Positions 5,919 to 53,789 of a DNA stretch of 59,118 nt are shown here, piece after piece; the stretch's first letter is position 1, and each line of letters opens with the position of its first letter. Under the pieces are notes generated by a model. That model did not search any database. It was not told the DNA's origin and worked only from the letters and a program-made list of their open reading frames with translations. The stretch covers positions 1 through 59,118 of the forward strand of contig MNVC01000014.1 of assembly GCA_001871435.1 (NCBI GenBank). The letters run 5' to 3'. Position numbers and translations under genes: made by a program. This stretch comes from Candidatus Magasanikbacteria bacterium CG1_02_32_51. Its GTDB lineage: Bacteria > Patescibacteriota > Patescibacteriia > Magasanikbacterales > UBA922.

Positions 5919-6391
5919 CATTGTCTCATTGTGCCATTGTGCCATTGACTTTTTTTACATTATTTTTTATGATAAAGAAGTTTTTGAGTTTAAAAGATAT
6001 TGACTGTTATTTCTTGTCCTATAATCTTAGTAATTATGTTTGGAATATTGTTATACAGTGGAATTACTTTGAAAAGAATAGTCTTGGTTCACAATTTGCT
6101 CGGGCAATTGATTCAATATCATCAAATATAGCAGAAGGATTTGGTAGATATAATAAAAAAGATAAGGTAAAATTTTATAGATACTCCATGGGTTCACTTT
6201 ACGAATGTTTGGACTGGAATCAAAAATCTATGAAAAGAGATTTGATAACAAAAGAAGATTATAATTTTATTTTTGAAAATTTACAAAAAATTAAACCAGA
6301 GATTTATTCACTGATAAATTATACTAACTTAAAATTAAAATTTTAACATCTTAGTAAAGTCACAATGGGTCAGTGACACAATGAAACAATT
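5919..6391. mobile_element. Cassette: inverted 8-mer arrays enclosing a four-helix-bundle gene
   Basis: Left arm cattgtct cattgtgc cattgtgc cattgact (5919-5950); right arm tcacaatg ggtcagtg acacaatg aaacaatt (6360-6391). Confidence 0.65.
5969..6346 (+). CDS. Four helix bundle protein (23S rRNA IVP / TIGR02436-like)
   Basis: LGSQFARAIDSISSNIAEGFGRYNKKDKVKFYRYSMGSLYE signature. Confidence 0.9.
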   Translation: MIKKFLSLKDIDCYFLSYNLSNYVWNIVIQWNYFEKNSLGSQFARAIDSISSNIAEGFGRYNKKDKVKFYRYSMGSLYECLDWNQKSMKRDLITKEDYNFIFENLQKIKPEIYSLINYTNLKLKF

Positions 6392-6438: not shown

Positions 6439-7455
6439 ATGAATAAAAAAGCATTGATTACAGGCATCACTGGCCAAGACGGCTCATATTTGGCTGAATT
6501 TTTGTTGGACAAAGGATATGAAGTACACGGTATTATGAGACGTTCTAGTAGTTTCAATACTGAAAGAATTGATCACTTATATCGTGATCGACATGGTAAG
6601 GATGTGAAGTTATTTTTACATTACGGAGATTTGACAGATAGCAGTAATATTAGTCGTATTTTGGATGAAGTAGTGCCTGATGAAATTTACAATCTTGGTG
6701 CTCAGAGTCATGTGCGTGTTAGTTTTGATTTGCCTGAATATACGGCTGATGCTGATGGGCTAGGAACACTGCGTTTGTTAGATGCTATTCGTGACAAGGG
6801 GATGAAAGTGAAGTTTTATCAAGCTGGTAGCTCAGAAATGTTTGGTAAGGTATTGGAAACTCCCCAAAAAGAAACTACACCTTTTTATCCACGTAGTCCT
6901 TATGGCTGTGCCAAAGTCTATGCCCATAACATCTCAGTCAATTATCGTGAGAGTTATAATATGTTTGTGTGTAACGGCATACTTTTCAATCACGAATCTC
7001 CTCGTCGTGGTGGTACTTTTGTGACCAAGAAAATTGTTGATGCTTTCAAAAATATCAAAGAAGGAAAACAAGAGAAATTATATTTGGGAAATCTAGAAGC
7101 CAAACGCGATTGGGGCTATGCCAAAGATTATGTGGAAGCTATGTGGCTTATGCTTCAGCAACCAGAACCAGATGATTATGTGGTAGCCACAGGTGAAACT
7201 CACAGTGTTCGCGAGTTTGTGGAAGAGGCTGCCCCGTACTTTGGTTTTGATATAGAATGGCAAGGTAATGGACTAAAAGAAAAAGGTATAGATAAGAAGA
7301 CTGGTAAAACTTTGATTGAGATAGATGAAAAATATTTTCGTCCAGCTGAAGTGGATATATTATTGGGAGATGCTACCAAAGCCAAAGAAAAATTAGGTTG
7401 GGAACCAAAGACAAGATTCAAAGAGTTGGTGAAGATAATGTGTGAGGAAGAATAG
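6439..7455 (+). CDS. gmd: GDP-mannose 4,6-dehydratase
   Basis: [41 protein letters not shown]. Confidence 0.97.
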
Positions 7456-7528
7456 TTTTTTGGTGTTTGTTGATATTTGTTTTATTTTGTTATAGACAAG
7501 GATAGAGGTAAGATGAAAATAATTTAGG

Positions 7529-7647
7529 AATTTTAAATTTTGAATTTTAAAACAATTTTTAATGACTCAATTTTTAATATAGTTTAAAAATTAGTTCATT
7601 TATAAATTTGAAATTGTTTTAAAATTCAAAATTCAAAATTCAAAATT
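7529..7647. repeat. Empty inverted 7-mer (aattttg) array cassette
   Basis: Right arm 7612-7647 is the exact reverse complement of the 36-bp left arm of the gene-bearing cassette at 34281-34316. Confidence 0.85.
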
Positions 7648-7651
7648 CTTT

Positions 7652-8608
7652 ATGGACTATTCTTCAAAAATATACATCGCCGGTCATAATGGTATGGTTG
7701 GATCAGCGATATTTCGTTTACTCAAGAAACAAGGTTATACAAATCTGTTGACACGTACACATCAGGAGTTGGATCTATTAGACGCCAAAGCTGTGGCAGA
7801 TTTTTTTGTATCAGAAAAACCAGAATATGTTATTTTGGCGGCTGCTAAAGTTGGGGGAATTCTGGCTAATAATATTTACCCGGCAGATTTTTTGTATCAA
7901 AATTTGCAAATTCAAAGTAATGTTATTCATAATGCTTATTTGTCTGGAGTAAAGAAATTATTGTTTTTGGGTTCGTCTTGCATCTATCCAAAAGATTGTC
8001 CGCAACCAATAAAAGAAGAATATTTGTTGACAGGATTACTTGAGCCAACTAATGAAGCCTATGCTATTGCTAAAATTGTTGGTATAAAGATGTGTCAAAG
8101 TTATAATAGACAGTATGGGACTAATTTTATAGCCGTCATGCCGACTAATCTTTATGGGCCAAATGATAATTTTGATTTGGAGAATTCTCATGTTTTACCG
8201 GCTTTACTTCGTAAATTTCATGAAGCAAAAGTAAATAATTTGTTAGAAGTAGAAGTCTGGGGAACAGGCAGACCTAGAAGAGAATTTTTACACGTGGATG
8301 ATATGGCGAAAGCTTGTCTTTTTGTCTTACAAAATTTTGATCCTAGTAAAGAAGAAAATGAAAACGGAGAAATATTTTTTAATATTGGTACTGGGATTGA
8401 TTTGACTATTTTAGAATTAGCAGAAATGATCAGGAGTGTGGTTGGTTTTGAAGGTAAAATTGTCTTTGACAGTAGTAAGCCAGATGGAACGATGCAAAAA
8501 CTTTTGGATGTATCAAAAATAAATAATTTAGGTTGGAAAGATGAAATTGGTCTGAAAGAGGGGGTAAAGCAGATATATGAGTGGTATTTGAACTCTATTG
8601 ACACCTAG
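7652..8608 (+). CDS. fcl: GDP-L-fucose synthase
   Basis: IAGHNGMVGSA, AAAKVGGILAN, LGSSCIYPK, EPTNEAYAIAK. Confidence 0.96.
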   Translation: MDYSSKIYIAGHNGMVGSAIFRLLKKQGYTNLLTRTHQELDLLDAKAVADFFVSEKPEYVILAAAKVGGILANNIYPADFLYQNLQIQSNVIHNAYLSGVKKLLFLGSSCIYPKDCPQPIKEEYLLTGLLEPTNEAYAIAKIVGIKMCQSYNRQYGTNFIAVMPTNLYGPNDNFDLENSHVLPALLRKFHEAKVNNLLEVEVWGTGRPRREFLHVDDMAKACLFVLQNFDPSKEENENGEIFFNIGTGIDLTILELAEMIRSVVGFEGKIVFDSSKPDGTMQKLLDVSKINNLGWKDEIGLKEGVKQIYEWYLNSIDT

Positions 8609-8670
8609 TGATACTATATGTTAAAATTGTTTTAGTTGTTGAATCACTACGTTTGTTATAATTAATTTTT

Positions 8671-8733
8671 CAACTACAACAACTACAACAACTACAACAA
8701 CTACAACAACTACAACAACTACAACATTTACAA
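8671..8733 (+). repeat. (CAACTACAA)6 nonamer tandem repeat plus one degenerate unit; short inverted arm at 8627-8641
   Basis: Direct reading; lies between a TTGACA-18-TAAAAT promoter (8598-8627) and the HTH gene. Confidence 0.9.
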
Positions 8734-8746
8734 CATCTAGAACATT

Positions 8747-8992
8747 ATGTCTGAAATCAAACCTAACGAAGTATATACAACTGTTGAAGCTCAAGATCTG
8801 CTTAAAGTGAGTGCAAGTACCATGAAGCGTCTACTCAAAAAAGGTCTTATTAGAGCTAATAAGATTGGTAAACAATACCGTTTTTTGGGTCATGAACTAC
8901 TCAAAATGTTGTCTCCGGAAATTGATGTAAAAGCAACTGATCTTTATCAAAAAGTAAAAATAGAGACTATTAAAAAAACTAAAAGTTGGTAA
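8747..8992 (+). CDS. Excisionase-like (HTH_17) DNA-binding protein
   Basis: VYTTVEAQDLLKVSASTMKRLLKKGLIRANKIGKQYRF. Confidence 0.85.
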   Translation: MSEIKPNEVYTTVEAQDLLKVSASTMKRLLKKGLIRANKIGKQYRFLGHELLKMLSPEIDVKATDLYQKVKIETIKKTKSW

Positions 8993-31663: not shown

Positions 31664-32755
31664 ATGAAAATCCTTTATCTCATAACAAAATCCGAAGCCG
31701 GTGGAGCACAAACTCACGTATTAGAACTTTGTAATTATTTTGTTAAACAAAACGAAGTAGTTGTGATGGCTAATGGCATTGGTTGGTTAAAATATAAATG
31801 TGAAGATTTAAAAATAAGTTATGTAGAAAATCAATATTTTTCCAATAGTAGTAATCCTATTAGAATTTGGAAAGCTATCAAAGAAATAAAAAAAATAGCA
31901 AAAGATTTTCAACCAGACATTGTTCATTGTCATAGTTCGGCCGCAGCTTTTTTTACTAGATTGGCAATACAAGGTAAATACAAAACAATATATACTGCCC
32001 ATGGTTGGGGGTTCAACATTGGTATGAATTCTATTGTGAGATTTTTGGTTTTGTTGACAGAAAAGTTTAATGCTAAATATACAGACAAGTACATTTGTGT
32101 TTCAAAATTTGTAAAAAAATTAGGAATGAAATATAAATTAGCAAAGGAAGATAAATTTGTAGTAATTTATAATGGAATCAATAAGACAACAGACAACAGA
32201 CAACAGACAACAGACAATTCAAAAATTAGACTTATGTTTGTGGGTCGTTTGGCTGAGCCAAAAAGACCAGAGATGATTATTGAAGTGATTGGTAATTTTG
32301 AAAAGGAAATTCAAGATAAGATACAGCTGACAATTATAGGAGATGGGAAGAAAAAAGAATTTTTACAAAATTTAGCTAAAGAAAAAAAAGTAGATGTTAT
32401 TTTTGCTGGAAATTTGGAACGTAATAAAGTAATTGATGAACTAGTAAAAAGTGACATCTTTGTTTTTGTCTCAGCGTGGGAGGGTTTTCCTTATACTATT
32501 CTTGAAGCTATGTCAGTTGGTTTGCCAGTTATAGCTAGTAACGTTGGAGGGATATCAGAAGTAGTGGATAATACAGTGGGACGTCTGGTGGAAAATGGGT
32601 CTATCCAAATAGCTCAAGCTTTGTTAGAATTGATAAACAATCCTGAATTGAGGTGGAAGCTAGGTAAAAATGGACGAAAACTGATAGAGAATAAGTTTAG
32701 CCTAGAAAAAATGTTGAAAGAAACAGAAAAAATTTATAAAGAAGTTTTAAGTTAA
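31664..32755 (+). CDS. Glycosyltransferase family 4
   Basis: GGAQTHV, HCHSS, YTAHGW, EGFPYTILEAMSVGLP. Confidence 0.92.
   Translation: MKILYLITKSEAGGAQTHVLELCNYFVKQNEVVVMANGIGWLKYKCEDLKISYVENQYFSNSSNPIRIWKAIKEIKKIAKDFQPDIVHCHSSAAAFFTRLAIQGKYKTIYTAHGWGFNIGMNSIVRFLVLLTEKFNAKYTDKYICVSKFVKKLGMKYKLAKEDKFVVIYNGINKTTDNRQQTTDNSKIRLMFVGRLAEPKRPEMIIEVIGNFEKEIQDKIQLTIIGDGKKKEFLQNLAKEKKVDVIFAGNLERNKVIDELVKSDIFVFVSAWEGFPYTILEAMSVGLPVIASNVGGISEVVDNTVGRLVENGSIQIAQALLELINNPELRWKLGKNGRKLIENKFSLEKMLKETEKIYKEVLS
32184..32217 (+). repeat. (AGACAAC)4.9 heptamer tandem repeat inside the GT4 CDS
   Basis: Encodes KTTDNRQQTTDN in the inter-domain linker. Confidence 0.9.
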
Positions 32756-32891
32756 AAGTTTGTAAAGTTCTTAAAGTTTATAAAGTAACTTTTGTTAAAT
32801 TACTAAGCAGTTCAATTATCCAATAAACCAATTAACTAATTATCTACATTTTTTTAAATAAAATTTACATGATTTATTATAATCATGGTTA

Positions 32892-34274
32892 ATGAAAAAA
32901 CCTATGAAACTCCTCTATATTGGTGCCGGATATGTTGGTACTTGTTCAGCAGCTGTCTCTGCCTCAAGTGGGCATGATGTTTTGGTGTATGACATTGATG
33001 AAAAGAAGATAAGTATGTTGTCTTCAGGTGACCGTGACCAGATAGAAGCTTGTCTTTTCGAAGAAGGTCTTAGTGATTTGTTGGTTCGTAATCAAGAAAG
33101 AATAAAATTTACTTTGGATTATCGCAAAGTTGTAGATTTTTTGGATACCTGTGATGCTATTTTCATGTGTTTGCCAACTCCGGAAATTGGAGAAACAGGG
33201 GAGAGTGATCTTAGATATTACAATGAGGCGGCACAGCAATTGGCAGAAAATTTGGCCAAGAGAACTGCTGGAACACAAGAAAAATATATTGTTATAATCA
33301 ACAAAAGTACTGTACCGATAGATATGGTGGATAAGACCTCTGAGATTTTGGAAAGTATGGGTGTCAAGAATTTTGGGGTGGTTTCTAATCCAGAATTTTT
33401 GGTAGAAGGTAAAGCCATTCAAGCATCTATCAAGCCTGATAGAATTGTGGTTGGTGCTTGGACTCAAAAAGATTTTGAAATAATGAGAAAAGTCTATGAA
33501 CGATTCTACAATTCACCTCAGACAAAATATATTGAGATAAATCCCAAAGAAGCGGCAGCAAGTAAACTTCTTGCCAATTATATACTTTTCAATAAATTGG
33601 CTGTGTGTTTCGACGTGGTTGGTCGTACTTGCGAGAGTTTTGAAAATCTTCAATTTGAAAATGTTCGCAATGCTTTGGTCGCAGATCCACGTATTGGAAG
33701 TTGGGGGCTGTACAATAGCCTTTATGCTGGAGGAAGTTGTCTTATCAAAGACGCTCGTTCGCTTTCTCATCAACTCAAATATAAAAATCAAAATACTACA
33801 CTAGTTGATGAGGTTTATTTATCAAACAAAAGACAACTTAATAATTTTTTGAGTAGAATTGATCAAATAATAGATTCTAATTGGTCGAATAAGAAAGTCA
33901 CAATTTTAGGTACAGCATTCAAGCGTGATACCAATGATATTCGCAATTCAGCTAGTATAGAAATTATGAAATATTTGGAAAATAAAAGTATTTCACAAAT
34001 AAATATTTATGATCCAGCTGGGATGGATAATTTCAAAAAAATGTTTGGAGAATCAGAAAAAGTGAAGTATCATCATCACGAATTTGAAGCAATCAAGAAT
34101 TCTGATATAATAATCATAGCTACTGATTGGCCACAGTTTCGTGGTTTGGCTGATGTCATTATTTCTGAGCTTTCTAGCAAACCTTTGATTGCTGATGGGC
34201 GTCGTATGCTCCAACATCGTTATCAGGATTTGAAAGACGCGGGGTTTAAGGTGATTGCAGTAGGAAGTAGATAG
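32892..34274 (+). CDS. ugd: UDP-glucose/GDP-mannose 6-dehydrogenase
   Basis: IGAGYVG, NKSTVP, SNPEFL.EG, GGSCLIKD, AFK..TNDIR. Confidence 0.9.
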   Translation: MKKPMKLLYIGAGYVGTCSAAVSASSGHDVLVYDIDEKKISMLSSGDRDQIEACLFEEGLSDLLVRNQERIKFTLDYRKVVDFLDTCDAIFMCLPTPEIGETGESDLRYYNEAAQQLAENLAKRTAGTQEKYIVIINKSTVPIDMVDKTSEILESMGVKNFGVVSNPEFLVEGKAIQASIKPDRIVVGAWTQKDFEIMRKVYERFYNSPQTKYIEINPKEAAASKLLANYILFNKLAVCFDVVGRTCESFENLQFENVRNALVADPRIGSWGLYNSLYAGGSCLIKDARSLSHQLKYKNQNTTLVDEVYLSNKRQLNNFLSRIDQIIDSNWSNKKVTILGTAFKRDTNDIRNSASIEIMKYLENKSISQINIYDPAGMDNFKKMFGESEKVKYHHHEFEAIKNSDIIIIATDWPQFRGLADVIISELSSKPLIADGRRMLQHRYQDLKDAGFKVIAVGSR

Positions 34275-34280
34275 ATGAAA

Positions 34281-34744
34281 AATTTTGAATTTTGAATTTT
34301 GAATTTTAAAACAATTTTATAATTTTTTAATTTTAAATGGAGGCTATGAATTATGATTTAGAAGAAAGAACGTTGAAGTTTAGTAAAGAAGTTTTAATTT
34401 TTTTATCTGGATTAACAAGTAGTCCAATAAATAATCCAATTATTTCTCAGTTAGTTCGTTCTGCAACTAGTGTTGGTGCAAATTATAGAGAAGCAAATGC
34501 GGCTAGTTCTAAAAAAGATTTCAAAAATAAAATATCAATATCAAGAAAAGAAGCTAATGAAACAAAGTATTGGATAGAATTATTAGGTAATATAGAGTAT
34601 GATAAAGAAGAGTTGCGTAAATTTTGGCAAGAAGCTCATGAATTATCATTAATTTTTGGGAAAATATTTCATAGTTTAACTAGTTAATTCAAAATTTTGT
34701 AATTAGTTAATTGTTTTAAAATTTAAAATTCGAAATTCAAAATT
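34281..34744. mobile_element. Cassette: 36-bp inverted 7-mer arrays enclosing a four-helix-bundle gene
   Basis: Left aattttgaattttgaattttgaattttaaaacaatt (34281-34316); right aattgttttaaaatttaaaattcgaaattcaaaatt (34709-34744); 2 mismatches. Confidence 0.75.
34337..34687 (+). CDS. Four helix bundle protein (TIGR02436-like)
   Basis: YDLEERT..F, QLVRSATSVGANYREA, SKKDF..K..I.RKEANETKYW. Confidence 0.92.
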   Translation: MEAMNYDLEERTLKFSKEVLIFLSGLTSSPINNPIISQLVRSATSVGANYREANAASSKKDFKNKISISRKEANETKYWIELLGNIEYDKEELRKFWQEAHELSLIFGKIFHSLTS

Positions 34745-34759
34745 ATAAATATATTTATT

Positions 34760-35770
34760 ATGTCCAAATATCTCATCACCGGCGGTGCTGGCTACATCGG
34801 TAGTCATGTCGTCAAACAACTTATTGAAAAGAAAAATGATATTGTCATTGTGGATAATCTTTCTACTGGTTTTCAAAAAACAGTAAATACTTTGAAAAAA
34901 TACGCTTTGACAAAAAAAGTAAAATTGGGTTTTTACAAATTAGATTTGGCTGATAGTAAAAAATTGGAAACAGTATTTGCCAAAGAAAATGTCCAAGGTG
35001 TGATACATTTTGCAGCCAGTATCGTCGTATCTGAATCAGTGCGCGATCCACTAAAATATTATAGTAACAACACTGGTAATACAATCAATCTTCTCAAAGC
35101 TTGTTTGAAATACAAAGTCAATAAATTTATTTTTAGTTCTACAGCTGCGGTTTATGGTGATCCAGACCCAAAGACTATTCCTCTAAAAGAAAGTGGAATT
35201 ACTATTCCAATAAGTCCCTATGGTTCTAGTAAATTATTTAATGAAAAAATTATTCAAGACGTAGCTTTTGCTAATACAAATTTCAAGTATGTAATTTTGC
35301 GTTATTTCAATGTGGCTGGGGCTAGTGTAGATGGAATGTTAGGACAATCTACCAAAGATGCGACACACTTAATCAAAATTGCTTTGGAAACAACTCTTGG
35401 AAAACGTGAAAAAATGTTTATCAATGGTACAGATTATAATACTCCAGATGGTACCTGTATTCGTGATTATATTTATGTTGATGATTTGGCCTCTGCTCAT
35501 ATCAAATCTTTGTATTATCTAAACAAAAACAAAGGTGGAATTTTCAACTGTGGTTATGGTAAAGGTTTTTCGGTTAAAGACGTAATTAGTATGATGAAGA
35601 AAGTGAGTGGTAATGATTTCAAAGTAGAAACAACCAAAAGACGTGAGGGTGATCCAGCGATTGTCATTGCTGATAATAGTAAAATAGTTAATGAAATGGA
35701 CTGGAAACCGAAGTATGATGATTTGAAGATTATGTGTGAGACAGCGCTGGCTTGGGAGAAAAAGTTGTAA
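34760..35770 (+). CDS. galE: UDP-glucose 4-epimerase
   Basis: ITGGAGYIGSH, HFAA..V.ESV, SPYGSSK, LRYFNVAG, DGTCIRDYI. Confidence 0.95.
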   Translation: MSKYLITGGAGYIGSHVVKQLIEKKNDIVIVDNLSTGFQKTVNTLKKYALTKKVKLGFYKLDLADSKKLETVFAKENVQGVIHFAASIVVSESVRDPLKYYSNNTGNTINLLKACLKYKVNKFIFSSTAAVYGDPDPKTIPLKESGITIPISPYGSSKLFNEKIIQDVAFANTNFKYVILRYFNVAGASVDGMLGQSTKDATHLIKIALETTLGKREKMFINGTDYNTPDGTCIRDYIYVDDLASAHIKSLYYLNKNKGGIFNCGYGKGFSVKDVISMMKKVSGNDFKVETTKRREGDPAIVIADNSKIVNEMDWKPKYDDLKIMCETALAWEKKL

Positions 35771-35773
35771 ACT

Positions 35774-35843
35774 CACGTAACACGTAGCACATAACTCGTA
35801 ACGATTTTGTTACATGATATGTGTTATGTGATATGGGTTGTGA
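35774..35843. repeat. Empty inverted 7-mer (cacgtaa-type) array pair
   Basis: cacgtaa cacgtag cacataa ctcgtaa / gttacat gatatgt gttatgt gatatgg gttgtga. Confidence 0.75.
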
Positions 35844-36292: not shown

Positions 36293-38233
36293 ATGGATAT
36301 TACACAACAAATTCTAAATAAAATCTTCAAAAACCCCGAGCAGGATTTACTAATGTTTGACGACCCACTTTCTAAATTAGACATTTATGAAAAAGATGAG
36401 GGTAAATATTATGTAAAGTCTATATCAAAAATGGAGGAGGAAAAATTAGTTTACACTGAAAAGACTGGTAAGTCTGCTCCTGAAGAAATTGTTCGTCAAC
36501 TTTATTTATTGGAACTTACAAAGAAATATAAATATCCAAAAGCACATATAGAACTTGAAAAGATAGTGCAGTTTGGTCGTGAAAAGAACGATAATAAACG
36601 TGCTGATATTGTTGTCTACACTGATGAGACTTGGCAAACAATAAAAATGATTATTGAAGTTAAAGCACCTAATGCAGAAAACGATATTCAACAGTTGAAG
36701 TCATACCTGAACGCTGAGGGTTCACCAATTGGTGTTGCCCTTAATGGTAAATATCAGTTGATACTATTCCGCCCATACCCAAAAGATTTTGATACCCTAG
36801 ACCAAATACCTGCATACGGTGAAGATGTTGCCGATGTTCTCCAAAAGAGAAAGACACTTAAAGACCTGCACGAGCAAGACCTTAAAATTATTATCAAAAC
36901 CCTTGAAGAGTTGGTGCTCGCTAATTCAGGTTTTGATAGTTTTGATGAGATATTCAAACTTATTTACGCAAAACTTTACGACGAAAAAGAGGCTATTTCT
37001 CGTAATGGTGAGGAACTCTATTTTAGAAAAAGCCCAACTGGTAAGCCTGAAGACACAATGAAAGTAATCAACGACCTTTTTGAGGACGCTAAAAAGGAAT
37101 GGCCTGAGATATTCGAAAAGACTGACAAAATAAAACTATCACCCGAGCATCTCTCTATTTGTGTTGGTGAATTACAAGATGTCCGCTTGTTTGGTTCTAA
37201 TCTCCGCATCATTGATGAGGCTTTTGAATATTTACTCCCTGATGTAGCAAAGGGTAAGAAAGGTCAATACTTTACACCTCGTATTGTGATTGATATGTGC
37301 GTGCAAATGATGAACCCAAAGAAAAAGGAGTATGTCATAGACACTGCTTGTGGCAGCGCTGGGTTCTTGGTACACGCAATGCAATATGTTGCGAAAAATG
37401 AGAATCTCTCAAAAACAGGAATGAAAGACTATGCAATGCGATACCTTTTCGGTATAGACTTTGACGAGAAATCAACGAAAATTAGTCGTGCGATTATGGT
37501 TATTGCTGGCGATGGTAAAAGTCATATTTATAAAACTACTTCACTTGATACAAAGGAATGGCCTGAGCGTTTTAAGGCAGAACTAAGAGACTATGACTTG
37601 GTACAAGAGTACGATGATTACATAAAAACTAACGATAACAAAGAAAACTTAAAGGAGTTGAAATTTGATGTATTGCTTGCAAATCCTCCATTTGCAGGTG
37701 AAGTAAAGGAAAAACATTTACTGTCTCAGTATGTACTTGGTAAGAATGCTAAGGGTAAGATGCAAAAGTCAGTAGACAGACACTTGCTTTTCATTGAAAA
37801 AAATCTTGATTTCGTAAAAGTAGGAGGTAGACTTGCAGTCGTACTCCCACAAGGTATTTTCAACAACACCAGTGAGGAATATGTCCGTAAATATATAATG
37901 CAAAAGGCTCGTATCTTGGCAGTTGTAGGACTACACGGTAATTCATTTAAGCCACACACAGGCACAAAGACATCTGTTATTTTCTTGCAGAAGTGGAATG
38001 AAAACGAAGTAGATGCTGGCGGAAGTCCAACAGTAAAGGACTATCCTATTTTCTTTGCTACGCAGAAGCAATCATTCAAAGATAACAGTGGTGACTATAT
38101 TTTTGAAAAGGAAGCAGATGGCAGTATCGTAAAAGATACAGACGGTAACCCTAAATACCTTTGCGACTTGGACGAAATCGCAGATGCGTTTGTCGCTTGG
38201 GGTAAAGAACAGAAGTTAGACTTCTTAAATTAA
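36293..38233 (+). CDS. Restriction-modification protein: HsdR_N-like nuclease domain fused to an N6-adenine methyltransferase
   Basis: PEEIVRQ..RADIVVY..IIEVK (PD-D/ExK); GQYFTPR, DTACGSAGFL, LANPPF. Confidence 0.9.
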   Translation: MDITQQILNKIFKNPEQDLLMFDDPLSKLDIYEKDEGKYYVKSISKMEEEKLVYTEKTGKSAPEEIVRQLYLLELTKKYKYPKAHIELEKIVQFGREKNDNKRADIVVYTDETWQTIKMIIEVKAPNAENDIQQLKSYLNAEGSPIGVALNGKYQLILFRPYPKDFDTLDQIPAYGEDVADVLQKRKTLKDLHEQDLKIIIKTLEELVLANSGFDSFDEIFKLIYAKLYDEKEAISRNGEELYFRKSPTGKPEDTMKVINDLFEDAKKEWPEIFEKTDKIKLSPEHLSICVGELQDVRLFGSNLRIIDEAFEYLLPDVAKGKKGQYFTPRIVIDMCVQMMNPKKKEYVIDTACGSAGFLVHAMQYVAKNENLSKTGMKDYAMRYLFGIDFDEKSTKISRAIMVIAGDGKSHIYKTTSLDTKEWPERFKAELRDYDLVQEYDDYIKTNDNKENLKELKFDVLLANPPFAGEVKEKHLLSQYVLGKNAKGKMQKSVDRHLLFIEKNLDFVKVGGRLAVVLPQGIFNNTSEEYVRKYIMQKARILAVVGLHGNSFKPHTGTKTSVIFLQKWNENEVDAGGSPTVKDYPIFFATQKQSFKDNSGDYIFEKEADGSIVKDTDGNPKYLCDLDEIADAFVAWGKEQKLDFLN

Positions 38234-38237
38234 CTAT

Positions 38238-39656
38238 ATGTCTTGGCAAACAATAGTAAAGGATAATAATTTAGACGCATCAGTAACTTTTTTTAGTGAG
38301 CTTGTTGAAAGACTTGATGCAGAATATTATAAACCAGAATATCTTAATATAGATAAATTACTTGCAAAAGGCTTACCCCTTGGTGATATATCTAAGACAT
38401 TTGATTTACAATCTAATGGTTCTTTTAAACAAATATTCACAATATTGAATGACGGAAATGATAAAAATATACCATATATCAGGTCTGGCAATGTTGGAAA
38501 CTTTTTCATAAAAAAAAATGACCTATCTTTTATTTCCTCTGAAGCACACAATAAGTTAAAAAAAACACATACAAAATTGGGAGATATTTTAATGGCTAGA
38601 AAAGGTAAAATTGGAGGGGCAACAATAATTACTAAAGATGATGGAAACTATAACTCAAATGACAATGTTACTAACATTAAAATAATTGAAGGGATTAACC
38701 CATTTTATGTAACTACATTTTTAAATTGCAAATATGGACTAAATCAGGTTTTTAGACAAGCAACAGGAAATGTACAGCCTTGGCTTAGTATGAAACAAGT
38801 TAGAGGTCTAAAGATAGTATTACCAAACGAATTACTACAATTAAAAATTGAAGAAATAATTAAAAAAGCCAATCTTGCAAATAAAAAATCAGAACAAGAG
38901 TACAAAAGTGCTGAGTTAATTTTTCTTAAGGAAATTGGTCTTGATAAACATATAGCAAGTAAGTTAAGTGTATCTGTAAGAAATCTTTCGGAGTGTCTAC
39001 GAGATGACCGTTTTGATGCAGAATACTGGCAACCTGAATATGATGCAATGGAAAAAGCAGTTTCAAAAGTAATACAAAAAGAACTTGGCGAGATAGTTTC
39101 AGTATTAAAAGGTGTAGAGGTTGGAAGTGAAGCATACGACCCTGAGGGCAAACCTTTTATCCGAGTATCTGATTTTTCTATTTATGGCATTGAAGATGTA
39201 GAAAAGAAAATATCACCTGAACTTTACGAAGAGCTAAAAGATAAATACACCCCTAAAAAGGGAGATGTTCTTTTTACAAAAGACGGAACTATTGGACTTT
39301 CTTACGCTTTACACGAGGAAAAAGTTGGCATACTGAGTGGTGCTTTTTTAAGACTAAAACCAACTATCAAAATCAACACTGATTACTTAGCGTTGGTATT
39401 AAACTCGCTTTATTGTAAAACTCAAATTGAAAGAATGTCTGGTGGCGCTATAATTGCTCATTTAAAACCAGATAGTGCAAAGAAAATAAAGATACCCTTG
39501 CTATCAGATGCAAAACAGGCAGAAATTGCAGAGAAAGTATCTACGGCATTTAGAATGCGGAAGGAGGTAAAAGAACTCCTAGAAAAAGCAAAACGAGCCG
39601 TAGAAATCTTTGTTGAGCGAGATGAAAAAGAAGCTTTGAGTTATTTAATATCTTAA
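38238..39656 (+). CDS. HsdS-like specificity subunit with two TRDs
   Basis: Repeated RLDAEYYKPEY / RFDAEYWQPEY; GDILMARKG / GDVLFTKDGTIG. Confidence 0.88.
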   Translation: MSWQTIVKDNNLDASVTFFSELVERLDAEYYKPEYLNIDKLLAKGLPLGDISKTFDLQSNGSFKQIFTILNDGNDKNIPYIRSGNVGNFFIKKNDLSFISSEAHNKLKKTHTKLGDILMARKGKIGGATIITKDDGNYNSNDNVTNIKIIEGINPFYVTTFLNCKYGLNQVFRQATGNVQPWLSMKQVRGLKIVLPNELLQLKIEEIIKKANLANKKSEQEYKSAELIFLKEIGLDKHIASKLSVSVRNLSECLRDDRFDAEYWQPEYDAMEKAVSKVIQKELGEIVSVLKGVEVGSEAYDPEGKPFIRVSDFSIYGIEDVEKKISPELYEELKDKYTPKKGDVLFTKDGTIGLSYALHEEKVGILSGAFLRLKPTIKINTDYLALVLNSLYCKTQIERMSGGAIIAHLKPDSAKKIKIPLLSDAKQAEIAEKVSTAFRMRKEVKELLEKAKRAVEIFVERDEKEALSYLIS

Positions 39657-39658
39657 AT

Positions 39659-40009
39659 ATGAACAAAAAGAAAGAACCTTGGCAAATTGTAGCCGCTCGA
39701 TATTGTGTAGAAAATTCTGAAAAAGGTTTTGAAGAAAAAAATTTAAAGAGCTATATTCAATCTATTTATTCTGTAAGCGATGGGCATGTCAGTCAATTTA
39801 TAGAAGAAGATCTTCAGTTTCCTCTTGGTAGTAAATATCCCAGAAAGGAAAGAGGTGGATTTTGGATTCCATCGCTAGATTTGGTTTCAAAGGTAACTGA
39901 TTATGACGAGCTTAAAGAAGCACGTGAGAATTCAAAAAATGCATTTTGTTTATCAATTATTGCAATCATAATTTCAGCTCTAACATTAATTATTCAGCTT
40001 TTACAATAA
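39659..40009 (+). CDS. Hypothetical protein with C-terminal TM helix
   Basis: ORF starts 2 nt after the S subunit; hydrophobic tail. Confidence 0.6.
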   Translation: MNKKKEPWQIVAARYCVENSEKGFEEKNLKSYIQSIYSVSDGHVSQFIEEDLQFPLGSKYPRKERGGFWIPSLDLVSKVTDYDELKEARENSKNAFCLSIIAIIISALTLIIQLLQ

Positions 40010-40234: not shown

Positions 40235-41671
40235 ATGGAAAAACAAACCAAAATTGTCTGTACTATTGGACCTTCTTGCGAAGATGTAGATACATTGGAA
40301 AAGATGGTTAAGGCGGGGATGAATATCGCTAGACTAAACTTCTCTCACGGCACTTACGAAAATCACAAAATGCTTATTGCCAATATTCGTAAAGTAGAAG
40401 AAAAGACTGGTGAACCAATTGCTATTTTACAAGATTTGCAAGGACCAAAAATTAGAATCGGCAAAGTCGCTAATGAAGGTGTGGCTTTGTTGGCTGGTGA
40501 AGAAGTAATATTTTCTACCGATCCTAAAGATACTAATTATATTCCTTTGGGTTATCCTGAGTTGCATAATTTTGTGAAGCAAGGAGAAATAATGTTGCTT
40601 GATGATGGTAAAATGCAAGTAAAAATAGAAAGAGTAGTTGATAAAAAAATAATTACCAAAGTCATCGTGCCAGGCATACTTACTTCCAACAAAGGTATAA
40701 ATATTCCCCAAACCGATTTGTCAGGTCTAGTTGTTTTGACTGAAAAAGATAAACAAGATGTACGTTTTGGTATTGAAGCTGGAGTAGATATGGTAGCTTT
40801 GTCTTTTGTTATGAGACCAGACGATATTATTGATTTGCGTTATGAGATTGCAAAATGTGAAAAAGAATTAAACAAACCAGAACATTATCCAATACGTCTA
40901 ATTGCCAAAATAGAAAAAGCTGAAGCTGTAAAAAGAATAAAAGAAATATTGGATGTGGCTGATGGTATTATGGTAGCTAGAGGAGATTTGGGTATAGAGA
41001 TTCCTGCTGAAGAAGTACCTATTGTTCAGAAAAAATTGATAGATGTTGCGTTAGAACATGCCAAACCAGTAATTGTGGCTACACAAATGTTGGACTCTAT
41101 GCAAAACAATCCACGTCCGACACGAGCTGAAGTTTCTGATGTTGCTAATGCTGTGACTGATCATACTGATGCTGTGATGCTTTCCAATGAAACTGCTAGT
41201 GGTAAATATCCAGTAGAAGCTGTCACTATGATGACTAAGATTATCAAAGAAACAGAGAAGTCCGAATATACCAAATTATTTTTTCATCAACCAAAAGACA
41301 AAGTAAATAGGATTGATGATACTATTAGTGGTTTATCTAGACTTGTTGCGGAAGATGTAGGTGCCAATCTTATTTTGGCCGCTTCTTTGTCTGGTGAAAC
41401 TGGTCGTCTAATTTCTCGTTATCGTCCCAAATTTCCTATTGCTGTGGCTACTAGTAGCAAATTGGTTTTGCACCAGCTAAATCTTTCTTGGGGAGTTTTC
41501 CCATTTGAGATTGTTGAGTGTCAAAGTATTGAAGAGTTGGTAGAAAGATCTATGACTCATCTGAAAGAAAAAAAAGTTATCAAAAATGGTGATAGAATTA
41601 TTGTCGTTGCTGGTGAACCTGTAGGTCATGCTGGCCATGTAAATTTACTTGAAGTGAGAGAAGTGAAGTAA
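40235..41671 (+). CDS. pyk: Pyruvate kinase
   Basis: TKIVCTIGP, RLNFSHG, MVARGDLG.E, ATQMLDSM. Confidence 0.97.
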   Translation: MEKQTKIVCTIGPSCEDVDTLEKMVKAGMNIARLNFSHGTYENHKMLIANIRKVEEKTGEPIAILQDLQGPKIRIGKVANEGVALLAGEEVIFSTDPKDTNYIPLGYPELHNFVKQGEIMLLDDGKMQVKIERVVDKKIITKVIVPGILTSNKGINIPQTDLSGLVVLTEKDKQDVRFGIEAGVDMVALSFVMRPDDIIDLRYEIAKCEKELNKPEHYPIRLIAKIEKAEAVKRIKEILDVADGIMVARGDLGIEIPAEEVPIVQKKLIDVALEHAKPVIVATQMLDSMQNNPRPTRAEVSDVANAVTDHTDAVMLSNETASGKYPVEAVTMMTKIIKETEKSEYTKLFFHQPKDKVNRIDDTISGLSRLVAEDVGANLILAASLSGETGRLISRYRPKFPIAVATSSKLVLHQLNLSWGVFPFEIVECQSIEELVERSMTHLKEKKVIKNGDRIIVVAGEPVGHAGHVNLLEVREVK

Positions 41672-42080
41672 AAGGCTCGAAAGGCCTAAGATGCTTGAAA
41701 TGCCAGAAAGGTCTAAAAGCTATGAGTAATAATTTCAAATTTCAAAATCCAAATTTCAAATCAATTACAAATGACTTAATTCCAAAATTTTATATTTGAA
41801 ATTAGGATTTGATTTGAAATTTGGGCTTTGTAATTTGTCATTTAATACTACTATTTTTGTATATTTCCAAAGGTTCATTAAATGAGTGTCAGTGTTATTT
41901 TGAATTAGTTAAAGAATTAGATTTTATAAATCAAAAACAATTTGACTATATAGAAAACAAGTGTGGTGAAGTTGGTTTCTTACTTTTTAAATTAATCAAA
42001 TCCTTGGAAAATTCAAAAGCCTAATTGAGCTCGTCAAGAGCCTTTTGAGCTTTTCAAGCTTTTTAGGCCTTTCAGGCTTT
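41671..42080. mobile_element. Cassette: inverted 9-mer arrays around a broken four-helix-bundle gene, with a nested empty 7-mer cassette
   Basis: aaaggctcg aaaggccta agatgcttg aaatgccag aaaggtcta (41671-41715) / aagagcctt ttgagcttt tcaagcttt ttaggcctt tcaggcttt (42036-42080); inner aatttca/tgaaatt arrays at 41731-41843. Confidence 0.7.
41722..42024 (+). pseudogene. Disrupted four helix bundle gene
   Basis: ATG at 41722 (MSNNFKFQN...) stops inside the nested repeat; C-terminal half FLYISKGSLNECQCYFELVKELDFI...LIKSL is retained. Confidence 0.8.
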
Positions 42081-42136
42081 TTCCAATTTTGTTATTTTAA
42101 CAAAAATGTGTTATAATATTTTCAACTAACTTTAAC

Positions 42137-48648: not shown

Positions 48649-48721
48649 GGGGAAATGTGTGTATAGGTTATAAAGTAAATTTAACAGATATAATTGAATA
48701 AAACTGAGAGTATATAGACAA

Positions 48722-48810
48722 CATTGCTCCATTGTCATATTGTCCTATTGTGGTTTTTCTTTCAAAATTATTGGCAATACAGCAATAGGTCAGTGGGGCA
48801 ATGGGTCAAT
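48722..48810. repeat. Empty inverted 8-mer (cattgtnn) cassette between infC and rpmI
   Basis: cattgctc cattgtca tattgtcc tattgtgg / cagcaata ggtcagtg gggcaatg ggtcaat; same family as 5919-6391. Confidence 0.8.
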
Positions 48811-48818
48811 TTTAAAAT

Positions 48819-49367: not shown

Positions 49368-49374
49368 AACGTAG

Positions 49375-49441
49375 TTGAAAGTTATAAAGTTAAAAGTTCA
49401 TAAAGTACTTTTGACTTTACGAACTTTACGAACTTTTGACT
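49375..49441. repeat. Empty inverted aaagtt-type (7/9-nt) array pair between ssrA and infC
   Basis: aaagttataaagttaaaagttcataaagt / acttttgactttacgaactttacgaacttttgact; single arms also at 32749-32793 and 47482-47516. Confidence 0.8.
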
Positions 49442-49448
49442 AATTTTG

Positions 49449-53238: not shown

Positions 53239-53658
53239 ATGGAGGGGGATACAATAATTACAAATGACAAAATCCAAATTACAAATCAAAATCAAAATAC
53301 CAATGTCAAAGTTTACGACTTAGTTGAGAGAACAGGAAAATTTGGTGAAGATATAATAGTCTTTCTGAAGACTTTGGTAAGAGATGTTATAAATAACAGG
53401 TTGATAGACCAAATAATTAGATCAGCTACTAGTATAGGTGCAAATTATATGGAAGCAGACGGTGCTGAATCAAAAAAAGATTTTATACACAAAATGGCAA
53501 TATGCAAAAAAGAAGCAAAAGAAACAGAACATTGGCTTAAAATGTTGGCCAAAGCAAATGATAGTAGAATAGACGAATGTAGGAAATTGTGGAAAGAAGT
53601 ACATGAGTTGACATTAATATTTTCAAGTATTTTAAATAAAAGTAAAAATAAGAAATAA
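53239..53658 (+). CDS. Four helix bundle protein (TIGR02436-like); N-terminus translated through the left repeat arm
   Basis: YDLVERT..F, QIIRSATSIGANYMEA, SKKDF..K..ICKKEAKETEHW. Confidence 0.92.
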   Translation: MEGDTIITNDKIQITNQNQNTNVKVYDLVERTGKFGEDIIVFLKTLVRDVINNRLIDQIIRSATSIGANYMEADGAESKKDFIHKMAICKKEAKETEHWLKMLAKANDSRIDECRKLWKEVHELTLIFSSILNKSKNKK

Positions 53659-53710
53659 TTTTGCATTTATTATTTGAAATTGATTTGACATTTGAACTTT
53701 GAAATTTGGT
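53256..53710. mobile_element. Cassette: inverted 7-mer arrays around a four-helix-bundle gene
   Basis: aattaca aatgaca aaatcca aattaca aatcaaa ... aatgtca / atttgaaattgatttgacatttgaactttgaaatttgg. Confidence 0.7.
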
Positions 53711-53789
53711 TTTATACACTGAGATAACATAGATTTTTTAAAAATATATTAATCAATTTACTAATAAACTAATTAACAAATAACACAAT

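Follow-up and report, generated by a model that had tools for sequence, protein, structure and literature searches.

Repeat arms suggest that a gene-less hairpin and a four-helix-bundle gene cassette are two states of one small palindromic element in Candidatus Magasanikbacteria

Contig MNVC01000014.1 of Candidatus Magasanikbacteria bacterium CG1_02_32_51 (assembly GCA_001871435.1), analysed here over its full 59,118 nt (the window; contig C39 of the genome, G000), holds a short hairpin without a gene at positions 7520–7648 and a longer cassette with a small gene for a four-helix-bundle (4HB) protein at 34275–34757. These are probably the gene-less and the gene-bearing state of one small palindromic cassette, an account that we hold as a whole, with moderate confidence, to be the best explanation of the data. 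Each copy would follow a common plan of arms made of 7-nt arrays with a family-specific core and two sub-terminal segments, to which the filled state would add a ribosome binding site (RBS) and the 4HB gene. G000 comprises 837,160 nt in 48 contigs (32% G+C) and is rated 91% complete.

The two loci are linked by their arms. The 36-mer AATTGTTTTAAAATTCAAAATTCAAAATTCAAAATT at 7612–7647 on the plus strand recurs at 34281–34316 on the minus strand without a mismatch and at 34709–34744 on the plus strand with two, just as an initial annotation of the window had reported, and this level of matching was reached in none of 100 dinucleotide-preserving shuffles. The core TTAAAACAATT, described in that annotation as non-periodic and conserved, occurs four times in the window, and these are exactly the four inner arm ends (shuffle mean 0.67, maximum 3); the whole genome has 16 occurrences of it and 17 of its complement, as against 1.9–5.2 expected under Markov models of orders 1–4. 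Both loci share this core and also the sub-terminal segments that directly flank the open reading frame (ORF) in gene-bearing copies.

In the gene-less copy the left arm (7520–7557; plus strand, as are all parts of the two copies given below) runs from TAATTTAGG through 7-nt units (AATTTTA/G) into the core at 7547–7557, and its 36 nt ending at 7557 are identical to four other arms of what is here called the AATTTTG family. The central segment, or loop (7558–7611, 54 nt), can pair with itself over most of its length (AATGAnnnAATTT / AAATTnnTTCATT) and corresponds in sequence to the sub-terminal segments that gene-bearing copies carry. The right arm (7612–7648), consisting of the core complement AATTGTTTTAA and (AAAATTC) units, stops 3 nt short of the ATG of an fcl-like gene (7652). 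Each arm comprises four to five units of 7 nt (AATTTAG, GAATTTT, AAATTTT and others) closed by the core; taken as 7528–7563 and 7606–7641, the arms are 92% complementary, with 42 nt separating them. As RNA, the copy is predicted to fold at −36 kcal/mol (z −6.7). The copy is flanked by a GDP-mannose dehydratase gene (gmd, 6439–7455) and the fcl-like epimerase gene (7652–8608). The limits of the element, at first placed at 7529–7647, had to be moved to about 7520 and 7648, since in an alignment of 13 complete gene-less copies similarity fades only outside TAATTTAGG...CCTAAATT(A). The motif agatgaaaa, said to precede both left arms, is indeed present at 7513–7521 and 34272–34280. It was nevertheless rejected as an end of the element, because it is found in none of 12 other aligned copies, occurs 55 times genome-wide, overlaps a stop codon at 34272 and lies at 7513 within a spacer that can be aligned by eye to the spacer of relatives.

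The gene-bearing copy takes up the whole gap between that stop codon, which ends a UDP-glucose dehydrogenase gene (ugd; stop 34272–34274), and the start of a galE-like gene at 34760. Its left arm (34275–34316) begins directly after the stop codon and is followed by a left sub-terminal segment (34317–34336) that differs by 1 nt of 24 from the left part of the loop in the gene-less copy C21:7979–8087. The cargo (34337–34687) is a 116-codon 4HB protein gene of the PF05635 / TIGR02436 type, matching the Pfam model PF05635 with E 6e-18 (65.4 bits, cut-off 33.8) and TIGR02436 with E 2e-23 (82.6 bits, cut-off 24); its product is related to PDB 2RLD (E 3e-16). The ATG at 34346 is the likelier start, and a Shine-Dalgarno-like GGAGG stands 3 nt upstream of it at 34338–34342. 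Against the homologue in G004, the closest relative by the identity of four flanking proteins and one whose contig C1 is syntenic with the window, dN/dS is 0.108 (dS 0.86, 111 codons), and to judge from this comparison the gene is under purifying selection. The right sub-terminal segment and right arm occupy 34688–34757, with the core complement at 34709–34719. The outer arms of the cassette (34268–34338 and 34687–34757, 71 nt each) are 79% complementary, and the copy is predicted to fold as a panhandle whose outer stem runs uninterrupted for 36 bp (z −4.9). Metagenome contigs from a second study also contain the filled copy, which there differs at one position in 437 nt, and these contigs break within the arms. 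Apparent joints across the ORF in the data of that study (32900–35800) were rejected as polymorphism at this site, as they derive from paralogous gene-less copies; one such joint bears the loop letters of the copy on contig C40. Just upstream of ugd, at 32755–32842, there are a solo AAAGTTnAT array and an array of CAATTAAC, so that ugd is flanked by arrays at both ends.

Within G000, 27 loci match the gene-less copy (blastn-short). As read by eye from the matches and sequences, they consist of 16 gene-less hairpins with both arms (115–140 nt, two lacking one core), the single filled copy at 34275–34757, four half-elements at contig ends where a multi-copy insertion sequence (IS) landed in or beside the loop, five solo right arms and one fragment. 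The search of the genome and its relatives proposed in the initial annotation, with its count of filled and empty copies, thus gave one filled copy to 16 gene-less ones, and the hairpin family was found in all six congeneric genomes searched. There are about 40 arms in the family; a regular-expression census returned 43 hits to arms, of which three were judged spurious on inspection by eye. Pairwise, these 43 hits differ at a median of 7 of 36 positions, and 14 of the 903 pairs are identical. The 36/36 match, put forward earlier as the mark of a pair, is therefore real and proves family membership, but alone it does not single out the two loci. An arm variant with (AAAATTC)x3 is common to 7612, 34316 (as reverse complement) and C23:22827.

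An origin of these loci as independent A/T-rich microsatellites, each grown by slippage in its place and alike by chance, had been denied in the initial annotation, and we give it practically no credence. The genome has 32% G+C and 417 short arrays of period 6–10, and perfect (AAAATTC)n can grow by slippage; but the loci have the non-periodic core and the sub-terminal segments in common, the copies occur as inverted pairs at a fixed distance, shuffles yield no match and the family is present in every congener searched. The two outcomes that the initial annotation had set against its own proposal, a 36-mer at chance frequency and a lack of inverted pairs elsewhere, were not observed, because core and sub-terminal segments are shared and the 36-mer family is paired at about 16 other places.

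The multi-copy IS, which we take to be IS481-like, has inverted ends of about 26 nt, an N-terminal helix-turn-helix (HTH) and a C-terminal tail resembling an integrase core. It breaks the assembly at contig ends (C12 8611–8872, C48 9528–9789, C40 11146–11410 and C20 1–268), is also found at the ends of C1, C6, C7, C14, C28 and C38, and has a remnant at C10 25886–25962. Of the 11 IS ends, four lie directly against a loop or an arm of the AATTTTG family, whose hairpins together amount to well under 1% of the genome; this suggests that the IS prefers these palindromes. Small GC-rich hairpins of the CCACCCAAGGCGGACAAG type are nested in the cores of several A/T hairpins (C28:19590–19610, C36:7260–7290) and also in orthologous hairpins of G004, G002, G005 and G006, so that elements appear to insert into one another. 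A perfect inverted repeat of 535 nt without a spacer at C35:16339–17408 may be an assembly fold-back.

Comparison of orthologous junctions in congeneric genomes revealed three sites at which one species has the filled and another the gene-less state. At the ugd–galE junction, filled in G000 (488 nt), G004 has arms and core of the same family and no ORF in 168 nt; G001 and G002 carry an ACGAAAT hairpin, and the junction has a solo arm in G006 and nothing in G012 (34 nt). The C40 site, gene-less in G000, is filled in G001 (477 nt) by a cassette with related arms and a TAG in its ORF. At the C21 site an AATTTTG hairpin is present in G000 and G002 and gene-less AAAGTC hairpins in G004, G005 and G001, while G006 has a filled AAAGTTAT cassette of the same 9-nt family as those three hairpins. 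Downstream of pyk, G000 has intact AAAGGCC arms with a 68-codon ORF remnant and a nested hairpin, and G004 the same arms around some 30 C-terminal codons. Upstream of gmd, where G000 carries a CATTGTG cassette, G004 has a different filled 4HB cassette with CATAAAGTC arms. The gmd–fcl junction, site of the 7520–7648 AATTTTG hairpin in G000, bears an AAAGTC-type hairpin in G006, partial AAAGT arms with GC-rich palindromes in G004 and G002, and in G005 a cassette of 779 nt that has other arms and contains a PD-(D/E)XK gene (PF13366, TIGR04256); in G012, G036 and G018 it measures 29–54 nt and has no element. Homologous filled AATTTT(G/C) cassettes occur elsewhere in all five congeners examined; for the filled C13 site of G004, no orthologue was matched in the 91%-complete G000. 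In G000 and three of five congeners, the conserved Leu-Ile-stop with which the gene upstream of the C19 site ends falls on the element's outer TTAATTTAG. Taken together, the shared arms, core and sub-terminal segments and the orthologous states of the ugd–galE and C40 sites support the proposal of the initial annotation that the two loci are filled and empty forms of one element.

All PF05635 matches in G000 have this architecture. There are 11, nine of them over cut-off (nine intact genes plus two fragments), and 11 of 11 are flanked by inverted periodic arms of at least eight different unit families, including AGCAGAnTCAGC, AAAGTTCAT, AGATTAAT, GAGATAA, CATTGTG, AATTTTG, AATTACA/AAATCCA and AAAGGCC. 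Among the 11 cassettes, proteins sharing an arm family are 64–84% identical, while identity is 50% for a pair with related arms and 21–46% for the rest; at the level of sequence, then, the arms co-vary with the 4HB protein. All nine intact 4HB genes lie in the sense orientation to both neighbours. A strict scan for 11-mer inverted repeats had missed most diverged cassettes and was replaced by pairing of TRF arrays, in which the 417 arrays of period 6–10 gave 59 inverted pairs within 800 nt. Compiled by hand from TRF pairs, inverted repeats and blastn matches, the gene-less hairpins number 45 in at least five families, and each family combines about 4 to 16 gene-less copies with either a decayed copy or one or two filled ones.

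Three further 4HB cassettes lie in the window, all on the plus strand. The second gene-bearing cassette (5919–6390) has CATTGTG units in arms at 5920–5952 and 6356–6390 and a 4HB ORF ending at 6346; a gene-less hairpin of the CATTGTG/CATTGTC family at 48720–48815 (no strand assigned) makes this a second filled and empty pair within the window. The third (53253–53715) has AATTACA/AAATCCA units with the inner end AAATCAA, arms at about 53261–53313 and 53657–53708 and a 4HB ORF reaching 53658; its protein is 50% identical to that encoded at 34337, and the arms of both are related. The decayed cassette at 41670–42082, with AAAGGCC-type arms at 41670–41714 and 42037–42081, retains only about 68 C-terminal codons of its 4HB ORF (HMM match 41854–41985). 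Nested in its 5′ part is a gene-less hairpin of the AATTTCA family (41731–41843, no strand assigned), whose arms are 84% complementary to 53672–53715 and which is the gene-less partner of the AATTACA cassette. A further gene-less hairpin, of the 9-nt AAAGTTnAT family (49372–49445, likewise unstranded), abuts the tmRNA gene; the tmRNA junction in G004 holds an AATTTTG-family hairpin.

The pairing of gene and arms extends through the class. In a sample of one genome per family (61 genomes, G000 included), PF05635 occurs in 46, at up to 13 copies per megabase. Thirty loci, less G000's own and one near a contig end, left 28 for a test of arms against 280 control positions taken from within these loci: flanking inverted arms exceeded the control 95th percentile in 26 and the 99th in 24. 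These arms are mostly of period 7, with a unit sequence particular to each, and of the 18 genes that lie between co-directional neighbours 17 are sense and 1 antisense.

As to how the two states are related, the main source of gene-less copies would seem to be loss of the intervening ORF. Loss in place is held to be the commoner route because truncated intermediates and stops inside ORFs are seen: the ORF fragment at C37:7289–7393, and ORFs between intact arms with an in-frame TGA (C37:6178–6489) or a TAG (the C40-site cassette of G001), which are probably pseudogenes heading to the gene-less state. The initial annotation had spoken of cargo loss or MITE-like derivatives (miniature inverted-repeat transposable elements); truncated ORFs and MITE-like copies agree with this, but the copy at 7520–7648 may have arisen by loss or by gain, and no transposase-bearing parent was found. 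In a second account, which is possible though we consider it doubtful, the hairpins are older and a module of RBS and 4HB ORF enters their loops, for example by gene conversion via the arms, so that the "empty" copy never held a gene. Gene-less loops of the AATTTTG family, which outnumber filled ones by about 16 to 1, hold no convincing ORF relic; nearly identical arms of 36–70 bp would allow conversion either way, and loops are open to insertion, as four of 11 IS ends and the GC hairpins in some cores attest. This gain of cargo is at odds with the in-place decay between intact arms (68 against about 30 codons at pyk, C37:7289–7393, and the stops in G001 and at C37:6178), and the strict co-variation of ORF lineage and arm in 11 cassettes is more readily accounted for if the two descend together, although homing specific to the arms would produce this pattern too.

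Under the two-state reading that we favour, gene-less copies would spread or persist as non-autonomous partners and may be refilled by arm-templated gene conversion from a filled copy. The arms would most likely be kept because they are recognised by the family's own 4HB protein, acting in trans from the filled copy, a role proposed because the arm is the conserved part and tracks the protein; cutting and joining would fall to host recombination or replication enzymes. Evidence that arms act on one another as DNA comes from hairpins shared by G000 and G004. At the C48 site the loops agree at 57 of 62 positions as reverse complements (ungapped) as against 42 of 62 in the same orientation, and at the C29 site at 40 of 53 against 33 of 53; read by eye, the left C29 arms agree over about 40 nt and the right ones show a single difference. 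By this comparison the segment between the arms has flipped since G000 and G004 split. Because the loop is inverted between species with the arms nearly unchanged, the arms must recombine with each other as DNA; such exchange explains chimeric arms, for instance those of the 7520–7648 copy, and given that the segment flips, the near-universal sense orientation of the genes looks selected.

Several results weigh against this reading. An AATTTTG-type filled cassette is present at the gmd–fcl site in none of the relatives compared. Among nine junctions compared there is no clean unoccupied orthologous site in a close relative, and no target-site duplication was found at the junctions compared, where flanks are A/T-rich and unrelated; because neither was seen, we infer insertion as a unit only from the turnover of sites. 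The 36/36 identity is weak evidence of recent exchange, because (AAAATTC)x3 could arise by slippage to the commonest unit. Search for ORF relics in loops gave chance-like or marginal scores: with the G000 ORF, the score of the 7558–7611 loop was equalled by 22 of 500 shuffles, a marginal result, and with the G004 ORF by 264 of 500; for the G004 loop, 408 and 425 of 500 shuffles did as well against the two ORFs. Stem mismatches read on the sense strand show no G.U bias (60 G.U versus 58 A.C) and so give no support for selection on RNA pairing, and gene context shows no enrichment, 33 of 43 gene-less hairpins lying between co-directional genes versus 550 of 689 in the background. Genes of the PD-(D/E)XK type (PF13366, TIGR04256 GxxExxY) likewise lie between inverted periodic arms, at the gmd–fcl junction of G005 (L004:717–1495) and at C28:58305–58640 in G000; the arms are thus not exclusive to 4HB genes, which weakens a strict protein–arm model. 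Binding of arms by the 4HB protein is itself a prediction from the co-variation of the two.

Transcripts of each copy would plausibly fold into a long stem like that cut by RNase III in 23S rRNA intervening sequences (IVS), and the RNase III gene (rnc) is present in G000; a look for RNA runs that cover the locus returned none. Rfam models found only tmRNA and one tRNA in the window and no family at the hairpins. We regard it as unlikely that the hairpins are immobile host devices, terminators, attenuators or RNase III sites kept for operon expression, with the likeness of their arms a by-product. They are strictly intergenic (0 of 45 within ORFs), many span the distance from stop codon to start codon, arms are kept at orthologous sites while loops diverge, and the predicted stems are strong in a genome that has rnc. 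Such a function fits poorly, however, with unrelated arm families at one junction in congeners and nothing there in more distant relatives, with the six of 43 hairpins that lie between divergent genes, with the nesting of elements in each other and with the even numbers of G.U and A.C mismatches; the stems are moreover A/T-only and lack a G+C-rich stem with a T-run.

Repetitive extragenic palindromes (REPs) are short G+C-rich imperfect palindromes that flank the gene of their transposase (RAYT). A mobilisation of this type, in which IS200-like Y1 (HUH) transposases would act in trans on single-stranded hairpins with the 4HB gene as a passenger, seems very unlikely here. The hairpins are dispersed extragenic palindromes like REPs and BIMEs, and G000 has three Y1_Tnp matches (C43:134–496, C28:29002–29346 and 1760–1930 in the window). 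These genes are flanked, however, by GC-rich palindromes of their own (GTAGGGACAGGTC... at 1291–1342 and 1674–1725, GTCCCTCTGGGAC near the C28 gene) unrelated to the A/T arrays; two or three enzymes would have to recognise at least eight arm families, and arm sequence tracks the 4HB protein, not a transposase. The GTAGGGACAGGTC palindromes bracket the start of a weak Y1_Tnp (IS200-like) ORF at 1400–1972, a REP/RAYT-like arrangement separate from the A/T hairpins. In addition, the 98 nt of 1–98 recur at 1820–1917 with 77% identity.

Among published systems, the ORF-bearing 23S rRNA IVS comes closest to these cassettes. Like them, the IVS of Coxiella burnetii is a unit in the range of about 430–490 nt with a single small ORF of the S23p/PF05635 family; it is excised by RNase III and is described as a selfish element of unknown mobility (PMC4990558). 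Its terminal inverted repeats pair around the ORF over 28 bp, as against 36 bp uninterrupted predicted here. Its ORF is reported to be decaying and not translated (PMC4990558), whereas the ORF here appears to be under purifying selection, and the cassettes of G000 depart from the defining location of an IVS in lying between protein-coding genes in operons instead of in an rRNA helix. Here, unlike there, the arms are arrays of 7–9-nt units, gene-less copies are many and one genome holds several arm families. In the same bacterial radiation (candidate phyla radiation, CPR), insertions in rRNA genes include some with 23S_rRNA_IVP ORFs, and one site may carry either an ORF-containing or a shorter ORF-less form, with a scattered distribution across the host phylogeny (PMC11270868). 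These lie inside rRNA genes and carry mostly homing endonucleases, and the accessible text of that report describes neither 7-nt arrays nor junctions of protein genes (PMC11270868). Correia elements of Neisseria and other MITEs resemble the hairpins, by description, in being short, dispersed and intergenic, with inverted-repeat ends, a conserved core and a presence that differs between relatives; Correia elements are co-transcribed with their neighbours, can bind RNase III and have no transposase of their own (PMC2649163). MITE-like, too, are the roughly 16 short non-coding dispersed copies with terminal inverted repeats and the presence and absence differences at orthologous sites. MITEs have a transposase-encoding full-length relative, whereas the sole full-length relative here encodes a 4HB protein; the arms here consist of tandem 7-nt units, the junctions compared showed no target duplication, and the ends of the multi-copy IS are unrelated to the hairpin ends. 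Avd, an accessory of diversity-generating retroelements (DGRs) that handles nucleic acids and is no enzyme, has a PF05635-like four-helix bundle and so the same protein fold family (PMC10053308). G000, 91% complete, gave no match to the reverse transcriptase model PF00078 and no context of template and variable repeats, and a retro-element route was accordingly dropped.

Other features of the window lie outside the cassettes. Eight tandem copies of CAACTACAA (8653–8751) extend as far as the beginning of a small HTH_17 gene (8747–8992), and the window contains no inverted partner of this array. A HepT-like ribonuclease gene (PF01934, 862–1206; segment 576–1206) is preceded by a small ORF, the two probably forming an MNT/HepT toxin–antitoxin pair. 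Between the galE-like gene and pyk, 36293–40009 contains a fused N6-methylase/HsdR-N gene, a specificity-subunit gene and a small unknown ORF; it does not align with the corresponding 4.4 kb of G004, so the segment is variable.

Few unexplained small proteins of bacteria are as common as the PF05635 "rRNA intervening-sequence" proteins. To our knowledge, their only described contexts are the rRNA IVS and, more distantly, Avd of DGRs. In the full-text literature, which leaves subscription journals outside its coverage, no description was found of PF05635 cassettes with repeat arms outside rRNA genes. Tentatively, and with more doubt than belief, we put forward that the 4HB protein is the sequence-specific recognition factor of a class of mobile cassettes without a transposase: a ring of subunits would read the four to five tandem 7-nt units of its own arm family and join the arms, host enzymes would invert, excise, copy or insert the cassette, gene-less hairpins would be its satellites, supplied in trans from the single filled copy, and the rRNA IVS would be the same element landed in rRNA. 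The evidence points to a self-contained cassette, a gene with its cognate arms and a gene-less swarm, that turns over at operon junctions. If this is true, the ligand of the protein, the origin of 7-nt arrays in small genomes and the origin of rRNA intervening sequences would become testable. The cassettes also bear on the annotation of streamlined CPR genomes, with some 45 such hairpins taking up intergenic space in 0.84 Mb.

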